A stretch of DNA of 19,523 nucleotides from Candidatus Altiarchaeota archaeon (GTDB lineage: Archaea; Altiarchaeota; Altiarchaeia; IMC4; SCGC-AAA252-I15). Both the position numbers and the translations under genes were made by a program. Below, piece after piece: positions 345 through 4,322 of this stretch. Location of the stretch: NCBI GenBank assembly GCA_043800705.1, contig JAZDMS010000037.1, forward strand, positions 1-19,523, in the 5' to 3' direction. The first letter of the stretch is position 1. Each line of letters begins with the position of its first letter. A model generated the notes under the pieces. The model worked only from the letters and a program-made list of their open reading frames with translations. It was not told the DNA's origin and made no database searches.

Positions 345-419
345 TAGCGGGGAATGGATTTGAACCATTGACCTTCGGGTTATGAGCCCGACGAGCACTC
401 CTGACTGCTCAACCCCGCT
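345..419 (-). tRNA. tRNA-Met(CAT), initiator type
   Basis: Full cloverleaf AGCGGGG...CCCCGCT-A, with an A1-U72 pair, three consecutive G-C pairs in the anticodon stem (TCGGG CTCATAA CCCGA) and T-loop TTCAAAT. No encoded CCA, no intron. Confidence 0.96.
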
Positions 420-3425: not shown

Positions 3426-3872
3426 TCAATCATACCTTGCAACGATAGATAGGTTCATGCCTGAATCGCTCAGCACACATAATCCACGCTCCAACAGCCC
3501 TAACCTAACCTGGCAGTCGCAGAACTTCTTGAACACCTCCTTTATCCTCGATTCCCCAGTGGGATCCATCGACTTCACAACCCTGACGTAAAAGAGATTA
3601 GCCCCGTCACAATCGCCTTTCTCAGCCAAACCGTCAGCGACGGACTCAAGATGCTCTGGACTGTCCGCCGACAACGAAGCCCTATCCATCAACACCACAT
3701 ACCCGACAGACGTCGCCAAAAGAACCGCGGCCGCAGCGAGAATAAGATACATCCTAAACCGCGGCGAATCCCGGAGATTGCGCACATGGCGATGAAGCGG
3801 CCTGACAGATTTACCGCCGGCAACCACCACCTTCTTGACAGTAACATGATGATGAACTTTTCCCATATCCAT
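3426..3872 (-). CDS. Hypothetical single-pass membrane protein with a helical (TPR-like) C-terminal region
   Basis: Basic His-rich N-terminus, one TM helix (MYLILAAAAVLLATSVGYVVLM), helical repeat-like ADGLAEKGDCDGANLFYVRVV. Start moved to ATG 3872/3866 because the upstream part of the ORF is repeat DNA. Confidence 0.6.
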   Translation of the reverse strand: MDMGKVHHHVTVKKVVVAGGKSVRPLHRHVRNLRDSPRFRMYLILAAAAVLLATSVGYVVLMDRASLSADSPEHLESVADGLAEKGDCDGANLFYVRVVKSMDPTGESRIKEVFKKFCDCQVRLGLLERGLCVLSDSGMNLSIVARYD

Positions 3873-3913
3873 ATCAGCATCGTAATTGAGGAATAAATAT
3901 CTGCAGCCAACAG

Positions 3914-4250
3914 GCCGAAGACAATGCATTAAAACAGCCCACAGGCCCGATACAGAAGACCGAGGACAGAAGACCGAATACTTAGATTGCGACCGCCGGG
4001 ATCCTGCGCCGCGGTCCACAGTCTACAGTCCCCATCCTACAGTCCTCTGAAGACCGCAGACCGAAGACAGTCAAAAACAGCCCACAGTCCACAGTCTTGA
4101 AGACCGAAAACGGTAGACCGAAGACTTCCAACATGACCGAGGACAGAAGACCGAAGACTTAGATTGCGACCGTCGGGATTCTGCAAAAACCCTTCGGGGG
4201 TTTACATCCCGACGGTTACGCGACAAGAAATCGCTTTGGTGTGGTCTGAT
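3914..4250 (-). repeat. tRNA-Gly-linked repeat region: two copies of the tRNA 3' end plus heptamer repeats
   Basis: 4162-4181 is identical to 4248-4267 (20 bp), with a degenerate copy at 3985-4002. A 50-bp direct repeat at 3958-4007 / 4135-4184 has 3 mismatches. GAAGACC-like and CCACAGT-like heptamer runs are interspersed. Confidence 0.9.
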
Positions 4251-4322
4251 TGCGACCGTCGGGATTCGAACCCGAGTCGCCAGATTGGCAATCTGGAGTC
4301 ATAGCCACTAGACTACGGTCGC
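4251..4322 (-). tRNA. tRNA-Gly(GCC)
   Basis: 72-nt cloverleaf GCGACCG...CGGTCGC-A, anticodon arm CCAGA TTGCCAA TCTGG, T-arm TCGGG TTCGAAT CCCGA. No encoded CCA. Confidence 0.96.

Follow-up and report, generated by a model that had tools for sequence, protein, structure and literature searches.

The hairpin that lies directly downstream of the tRNA-Gly(GCC) gene in this contig is one copy of a lineage-wide family of modules, each of about 86 bp, found behind many tRNA genes. On balance we take the unit to be a lineage-specific, non-coding insertion or duplication module at tRNA 3′ ends, which brings with it a replacement end for the gene, a trailer and a terminator. Its features suit a terminator-bearing DNA module better than an RNA dedicated to tRNA mimicry.

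The DNA analysed, hereafter the window, is an entire contig of 19.5 kb (19,523 nt) from a 2.0-Mb assembly of 43 contigs that is 87.55% complete. An earlier note on this sequence had placed it in an archaeal host, and we agree. The features of the locus are these.

4251-4322, minus strand: tRNA-Gly(GCC), CCA not encoded (ARAGORN; Rfam RF00005, tRNA, 68.9 bits)
4217-4250, minus strand: conserved trailer, 34 nt (alignment of 14 units, 42 sense-strand rows and the sequence itself)
4231-4234 and 4220-4223, minus strand: small hairpin of the trailer, GCGA with TCGC
4219-4223, minus strand: TCGCG box inside the trailer, the source of the GCG that is paired with the acceptor end
4206-4216, minus strand: 5′ arm, 11 nt, the complement of tRNA positions 59-69 (inverted repeat and fold)
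4180-4205, minus strand: hairpin top, 26 nt, consisting of an A-run, a GC stem with a CGAAG loop, T5 and GCAGA (folds)
4185-4189, minus strand: T5 run within the top and before the 3′ arm, +62 to +66 after the tRNA
4169-4179, minus strand: 3′ arm, 11 nt, equal to tRNA positions 59-69 (direct repeat)
4165-4168, minus strand: copy of tRNA positions 70-73 (CGCA), downstream of the 3′ arm
4162-4164, minus strand: ATC, a copy of trailer bases 4248-4250
3958-4030, minus strand: degenerate second unit, its top hairpin lost (repeat comparison)
3900-4160, no strand: 7-nt periodic tracts of the GAAGACC and ACAGTCC types, filling the space between and beyond the units

The earlier note described 4162-4181 as an exact 20-nt copy of the tRNA 3′ end plus trailer, and repeat comparison agrees. 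The 20-mer is identical to 4248-4267, which covers the tRNA from G57 to the discriminator (4251-4267) and three trailer bases (4248-4250). We call the latter the proximal and 4162-4181 the distal copy; the insert at this tRNA is 66 nt only. No other exact site occurs in the 2.0-Mb assembly, and a third copy with two mismatches is retained at 3985-4004 in the degenerate second unit. The stretch 3958-4007 of that unit is 94% identical to 4135-4184, so that its copy of the tRNA end is followed by the flank seen downstream of the first unit. The two arms, 4169-4179 and 4206-4216, are 11 nt each, 26 nt apart and 100% complementary; all 11 positions pair around a nested hairpin, as had been read from the sequence. 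The tRNA segment 59-69 comprises the last two T-loop bases, the 3′ strand of the T-stem and bases 1-4 of the acceptor 3′ strand.

As RNA, the minus strand of 4155-4230 has a minimum free energy of -30.6 kcal/mol (z -4.37) and none of 200 shuffled sequences is as stable. The predicted structure contains the nested top hairpin and a GCG/CGC closure with a 2-nt bulge; both the bulge and the discriminator base shared with the tRNA, which the note had pointed out, are present. The note had also proposed folding both strands. A stable hairpin is indeed formed on the minus strand, and the plus strand is equally stable (-31.6 kcal/mol, z -4.67), so the strand cannot be identified from folding alone. 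The top, 4180-4205, is predicted to be terminator-like whichever direction it is read.

Could the resemblance be fortuitous or an artefact of assembly? The context is repeat-rich and one contig of DNA run X1 skips 143 nt nearby. Against this stand the confinement of the exact 20-mer to two sites, the failure of 200 shuffles to match the fold and the recurrence of the design in eight genomes, and we give such an explanation next to no probability. The X1 contig, of depth 2 and weak as evidence, joins 3930 to 4074 and thereby omits 3931-4073. Two 17-nt direct repeats bound the skip, which takes out the degenerate second unit and could represent a deletion variant from another population. The X1 contigs do not cover the hairpin unit itself. 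The 7-nt tracts recur in intergenic DNA genome-wide (contigs C12:49788-49995, C35:185846-185988 and C3:2166-2238), some of them just upstream of tRNA genes (tRNA-Cys, tRNA-Gln).

Inspection of the 130 nt that follow every tRNA called by ARAGORN reveals the same design after Arg(GCG), Arg(TCG), Arg(TCT), Ala(GGC), Val(GAC), Val(TAC) and Gly(TCC), and after Pro(GGG) with a different top. The hairpin is not peculiar to tRNA-Gly; the design stands behind nine tRNA identities. The note further suggested a covariance-model search beside other tRNAs, and this proved productive. Our model, R1, was built from 14 aligned units and contains 11 arm pairs and six top pairs. Applied to the genome of the window (G000) it gives 29 matches at E≤1, including 16 full sense-strand units with E≤1.2e-7 at the nine tRNA identities. 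The other 13 are mostly antisense images, with one top-only partial match (C20:74198) and weak sense-strand matches.

At E≤1e-4, eight of 41 genomes have matches: 18 in G000, 16 in G001 and one or two each in G002, G003, G005, G006, G007 and G016. All eight belong to one family (f1) and to its genera g1 to g4. The family consists of 21 genomes in total, all of which were searched, and seven of the 20 relatives of G000 are positive; none of 20 genomes from six other families of the order is. All 14 loci fetched from relatives have the unit downstream of a tRNA on the same strand, namely Val(TAC), Val(GAC), Gly(GCC), Gly(TCC), Arg(GCG), Arg(CCT), Ala(GGC), Gln or Ile (ARAGORN mislabels two of these genes, which have introns). 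Units are located solely behind tRNA ends or displaced copies of those ends. Several are in tandem. tRNA-Arg(GCG) has three R1 matches and one degenerate unit, each tRNA-Val has two units, and at one locus (L051) there are four, which form two identical pairs. At tRNA-Gln three units are found at a distance of 1.6-3.4 kb, and a displaced copy of the 3′ end of that gene stands before each.

Scans with the top-hairpin motif gave little further. Among prokaryotes, with one genome per species, 24 loci were found and real units occur only at two of them (L030 and L042); both are in Candidatus Altiarchaeota archaeon and duplicate loci already in hand (L051 and L052), so that they are counted once. 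The remaining loci of that scan are chance matches in AT-rich bacterial DNA. Two matches in the viral collection are both due to chance, and none of 24 loci in the metagenome collection has an R1 match. Neither of these two collections yielded a free or larger element bearing a unit. A profile of the conserved trailer alone detected nothing beyond the known units, and a full-text literature search of main articles found no description of such units.

The period of about 86 bp runs from a tRNA copy (T-loop to discriminator, with up to three trailer bases) through the trailer and the 11-nt complement to the top. The trailer combines a small hairpin with a TCGCG or TCACG box, which is kept whatever the tRNA. 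The stem is 11 bp, formed by tRNA positions 59-69 and their complement, and ends at 69. The top follows the order A-run, GC-hairpin, T-run, and its commonest loop is CGAAG (8/39 units). The arm sequence varies with each tRNA across the units, which bears out the suggestion that the complementary arm is tailored to the tRNA; the unit likewise exceeds a plain direct-repeat scar, as had been argued. The 39 distinct units used here derive from 57 matches after removal of 14 antisense rows and one partial row, which leaves 42 sense-strand rows. Units of genera g2-g4 (L003, L004, L058, L059, L061 and L064) display a second form of top, TAAGCGAG, a stem-loop and CGAGCGGGA, which has no T-run and in which GCGA stands opposite GAGC, so that tandem G.A pairs are possible.

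Minihelices that consist of a tRNA acceptor and T-arm are substrates for tRNase Z, the CCA-adding enzyme and some synthetases, and the earlier note saw the hairpin as a mimic of this kind. The window copy, alone in the family, does fold into an acceptor plus T-stem helix with the same discriminator base. The acceptor closure is peculiar to it, the stem elsewhere being 59-69 only. Positions 70-72 form contiguous pairs with the bases that precede the 5′ arm in none of the 39 units; if a bulge of no more than 3 nt is tolerated, they pair in the window unit alone, as against a mean of 2.29 units with permuted tails. In the other 38 units, 70-72 are unpaired, and the T-loop of a true minihelix is replaced by a 26-nt hairpin. 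A closed acceptor end thus occurs no more often than chance would give.

It is possible, though not probable, that the trailer and hairpin are co-transcribed with the tRNA and work as RNA. Two forms of this proposal may be drawn from the sequence. In the first, the unit would be a partial acceptor/T-arm mimic, serving as a processing signal, as punctuation or as a decoy for tRNA-binding enzymes. In the second, the trailer would be antisense to the 3′ strand of its own tRNA and would be neutralised by the 3′ arm on read-through. What does the pairing tell us? Over the 429 cells of the 39 units there are 369 Watson-Crick pairs, 17 G.U, eight A.C, 23 other combinations and 12 gaps. In 34 units the sense RNA has the more stable fold, in four the antisense does and in one the two are equal (mean -2.6 kcal/mol); because the units are related, the Wilcoxon p value exaggerates this difference. 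The ratio of 17 G.U to 8 A.C and the greater sense stability argue for a functional RNA. The difference in stability fits a single-stranded sense form, either RNA or DNA, or else a C-to-T bias on the non-template strand, from which the G.U excess could also arise.

The pattern of change in the arms argues the other way. Compared with the parent tRNA, 354 of 418 cells in 38 units are parental and 12 are gaps; this census excludes the window unit, which by direct comparison is fully parental. The 5′ arm alone is altered in 39 cells (14 giving G.U, 25 unpaired) and the 3′ arm alone in nine, and only four cells have both arms altered yet still paired. The frequency of change in the 5′ arm is thus about four times that in the 3′ arm, which stays tRNA-like. 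In 25 of the 38 units positions 70-73 match the tRNA throughout, so the direct repeat continues beyond the stem to the discriminator. An inverted arm that drifts, mostly to mismatches, beside a direct copy that is kept is unlike what would be expected of a selected RNA stem. Decay with distance from the tRNA is seen at tRNA-Arg(GCG) and in the unit pair of the window; in the set as a whole the pairing of proximal units is not clearly superior to that of distal ones, a point that counts against the DNA-module reading.

Termination bears on the same issue. Archaeal RNA polymerase terminates at oligo-T, a run of at least five T on the sense strand. No T5+ run occurs within 25 nt of any of the nine unit-bearing tRNAs, and in six of them the first is located between +60 and +66, on the 3′ strand of the top and before the 3′ arm. 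For comparison, 16 of 22 unit-less tRNA calls have such a run within 400 nt and ten of these have it within 25 nt. In the window T5 at 4185-4189 is the first oligo-T after tRNA-Gly and fits the description of a terminator. By the oligo-T rule, the unit would supply the terminator of the gene and many transcripts would lack the 3′ arm, which is absent from any transcript that ends at 4185-4189. If the T-run is the terminator then the long stem becomes a property of DNA, of single-stranded DNA during insertion, or of read-through RNA. The position of T5+ before the 3′ arm in most units weighs against a functional RNA hairpin. The trailer itself, by the same token, is necessarily transcribed as far as the top hairpin, since the unit-bearing tRNAs have no oligo-T of their own. 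In three of seven cases the predicted fold of tRNA plus trailer up to the U-run has the 5′ arm on the 3′ strand of the tRNA itself; when the 3′ arm is included the 5′ arm is predicted to shift to it. Both observations favour the RNA proposal.

Rfam offers no family to which the unit might belong. At gathering score the window contains two true tRNAs only, and at E≤10 the segment 3900-4260 gives noise, with no tRNA match. By eye, GGAUGU or GGAUGA and NAGA flank the top, which bears on a box C/D guide (consensus boxes RUGAUGA and CUGA). The boxes are poor, most units have U or C in place of the key A, there is no Rfam match and no guide sits in the right place, which makes such a guide doubtful. 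An alternative 3′ exon with a T-loop intron was discarded because the product would be the same tRNA. A primer-binding site of retroviral type was likewise set aside since the complementarity ends at 69, short of the tRNA 3′ end.

Comparison of 11 orthologous tRNA-Gly(GCC) loci gives some insight into history. Units are present at L002 (two), L006, L003, L008 (two) and L004, and L011, judged by eye, is a probable variant with a longer top. L010 carries a different insert with a plain tRNA-end copy behind it, and there is no unit at L005, L007, L009 or L012. In G016 the sequence beyond the 3′ arm resembles, by eye, the trailer that directly follows the gene in the unit-less ortholog of G020. 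This would make the distal copy the original tRNA end. The tRNA of G006 has a T-stem unlike those of the other orthologs and both arms of both its units match it, which speaks for a functional RNA. Its sister G016 has the G006-type base in the 5′ arm, where it mismatches its own 3′ arm. In the proximal unit of G001 the 5′ arm is kept and the 3′ arm has three changes, a decay that speaks against an RNA function.

More widely, the tRNAs that bear units (Gly, Val, Arg, Ala, Gln and Ile) are the same across genera g1-g4, where the trailer motifs are conserved and the top stems covary. Such persistence at the same six tRNAs counts in favour of an RNA function and calls for either selection or steady turnover. 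Evidence of exchange is found in G003, where trailer and unit are identical at tRNA-Val(GAC) and tRNA-Val(TAC) (L061 and L063) and the identity extends no further than the 3′ arm. It would seem that one of the two loci has recently been copied to the other.

Duplications are also observed at the other end of tRNA genes. At L060 (G005) and L064 (G006) a second copy of roughly the initial 30 nt of tRNA-Val(TAC) lies upstream of the gene, and a palindromic insert of the AAAGAAAG type separates the two copies. In the window, tRNA-Met (345-419, minus strand) has two identical 52-nt repeats upstream (373-424, 476-527 and 630-681 were compared), which end with about 20 nt of the 5′ end region of the gene (62% identity over 52 nt). 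They appear to be a stacked 5′-end duplication, the mirror image of the 3′-end units.

A more familiar origin would be the scar of a virus or plasmid, integrated at the T-loop by a tyrosine integrase and later deleted to its ends. The tRNA-gene integration sites of the T-loop class, according to Williams (2002), reportedly leave a direct repeat from the T-loop to the 3′ end. The repeat here has that extent, and a tRNA 3′-part does flank the insert (4162-4181 equals 4248-4267). As in attL/attR duplications, the gene remains intact, the former end is displaced, units stack in tandem and, elsewhere in the genome, larger cassettes are bounded by copies of the same repeat type. Archaeal integration that leaves direct repeats of parts of tRNA genes is well known (PMC3293823).

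The differences are considerable. The insert, at 66 nt only, is far from element-sized and gene-less, the same size and non-coding layout are conserved at nine different tRNAs, and an inverted arm matches each host tRNA. No adjoining integrase was found with Pfam in these incomplete assemblies. The 14 ORFs of the window include no integrase or transposase, and a single PF00589 tyrosine recombinase in G000 is on another contig (C17). PF00589 has no match in G001-G005 or G007, assemblies that are 70-92% complete and include the unit-rich G001. An att scar is accordingly quite unlikely in our estimation. Three particular systems were also considered and rejected. For a split integrase of SSV type the candidate was a 197-aa ORF at 3426-4019, which overlaps the degenerate copy and has no Pfam match; a casposon and an IS200/IS605 element were dismissed as G000 (87.55% complete) has no Cas1 and no Y1 transposase.

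The larger cassettes deserve description. Plain copies of the tRNA 3′ end, lacking an inverted arm, occur downstream of tRNA-Gln, Met, Phe, Asp, Leu(TAA), Leu(TAG) and Thr. They bound cassettes of 0.2-4 kb with PIN/VapB, RHH, DUF6036, Mrr_N and VWA genes and no integrase. One cassette lies between the 3′ arm of a unit and a plain copy. At tRNA-Gln there are seven end copies in 5 kb, three of which are the 3′ arms of units.

Within this region (L047, C30:1-6000) four small cassettes each end in the last 14-15 nt of the tRNA and encode, respectively, a 120-aa ORF with VapBC, a 447-aa protein, a PIN protein, and HVO_A0114 with DUF7718. Related end modules of about 60 nt, two of them nearly identical, occur in three of these cassettes and comprise a reversed T-arm-like piece and a TATA-like box; three hairpin units lie between the cassettes. 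Judged by its layout, the array looks integron-like, albeit one that is without an integrase. A second type of module (GGGTTGATAAGGGC, a hairpin and GCCCTTATGTTC) precedes displaced ends of tRNA-Thr, tRNA-Leu(TAG) and tRNA-Ile (C39:8083-8477, C29:31536-31780 and C22:58860-59090); it reads like a T-arm with a hairpin set in the loop.

How do the units compare with other repeats and hairpins of this kind? The tyrT-linked repeats of E. coli, RtT RNA (RF00391), are tandem and non-coding and each includes a copy of the tRNA 3′ end, which is also true of the array downstream of our tRNA genes. The units described here differ in having a tRNA-complementary arm, in standing at many tRNAs and in being about half the size, and RF00391 gave no match at gathering score or at E≤10. 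The REP/BIME, Correia and Sulfolobus SM elements and MITEs are short, non-coding, hairpin-forming, multicopy and terminator-like. Our units share with them the short non-coding hairpin, the many copies per genome and the terminator-like character. The unit stem, in contrast, changes with the neighbouring tRNA and the units are confined to tRNA ends and their displaced copies. The fixed terminal inverted repeats and short target duplication of a MITE were not found; the arms are tRNA-specific and the duplicated target, 15-20 nt, is itself one arm of the stem.

The attC sites of integrons and the attP of CTX phage, where a hairpin mimics dif, are recombination sites formed by a folded single strand. 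A GAA loop closed by a C-G pair gives a very stable mini-hairpin in DNA. The resemblance to such sites lies in a hairpin at the end of a cassette, a stem that reproduces the target, and small cassettes, some of which carry toxin-antitoxin genes, that form arrays anchored at a single site. The units depart from attC in having no linked recombinase, of IntI type or other, and in that the cassettes' own ends differ from the units. The GTTRRRY core, which is said to be the attC consensus, is absent from the unit alignment. It seems rather unlikely, though worth stating, that these loci represent a self-targeting insertion system poor in recombinases, in which the hairpin does the work, its 5′ arm is a guide to tRNA positions 59-69 and the toxin-antitoxin and defence cassettes at tRNA-Gln and tRNA-Met arrive in the same way. 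Once landed, such a module would no longer need its guide, which would drift, as is seen for the 5′ arm. The outcome would be integron-like arrays anchored at tRNA ends.

The preferred reading, a DNA module at tRNA 3′ ends, draws on the same-strand downstream placement, the tandem arrays, the extent of the direct repeat, the asymmetry of the arms, the polarity in G016, the exchange in G003, the cassettes and the terminator. Counting against it are the lack of a linked enzyme or a free element, conservation over four genera and the bias towards the sense fold, and we know of no process that makes an inverted and a direct copy of a target in one step. The module would enter or be copied by recombination or duplication within tRNA positions of about 57-73. 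The gene would retain a full 3′ end while its former end, now 4162-4181, is pushed downstream. Tandem growth and loss could proceed through the direct repeats, and exchange with the neighbouring tRNA may hold the 3′ arm identical to it. The T-run of the module would replace the terminator of the gene, so that the majority of tRNA transcripts probably stop short of the 3′ arm, at 4185-4189. The inverted arm may have been created at insertion, as a feature for targeting or as part of a recombination site, or it may derive from template switching at the hairpin.

Mobile DNA classically lands at tRNA genes, where an integrase as a rule leaves plain direct repeats as the scar. In this little-known archaeal lineage some 20% or more of tRNA genes carry short gene-less modules matched to the tRNA, which stack in arrays and would supply the terminator of the gene, with no recombinase in sight. 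In annotation the units should not be labelled as tRNA fragments or small-RNA genes unless transcripts support it. Should they prove to be RNA, they would constitute a family of tRNA-tailored trailers. If they are DNA elements, they would represent an undescribed way to target and duplicate the ends of genes.
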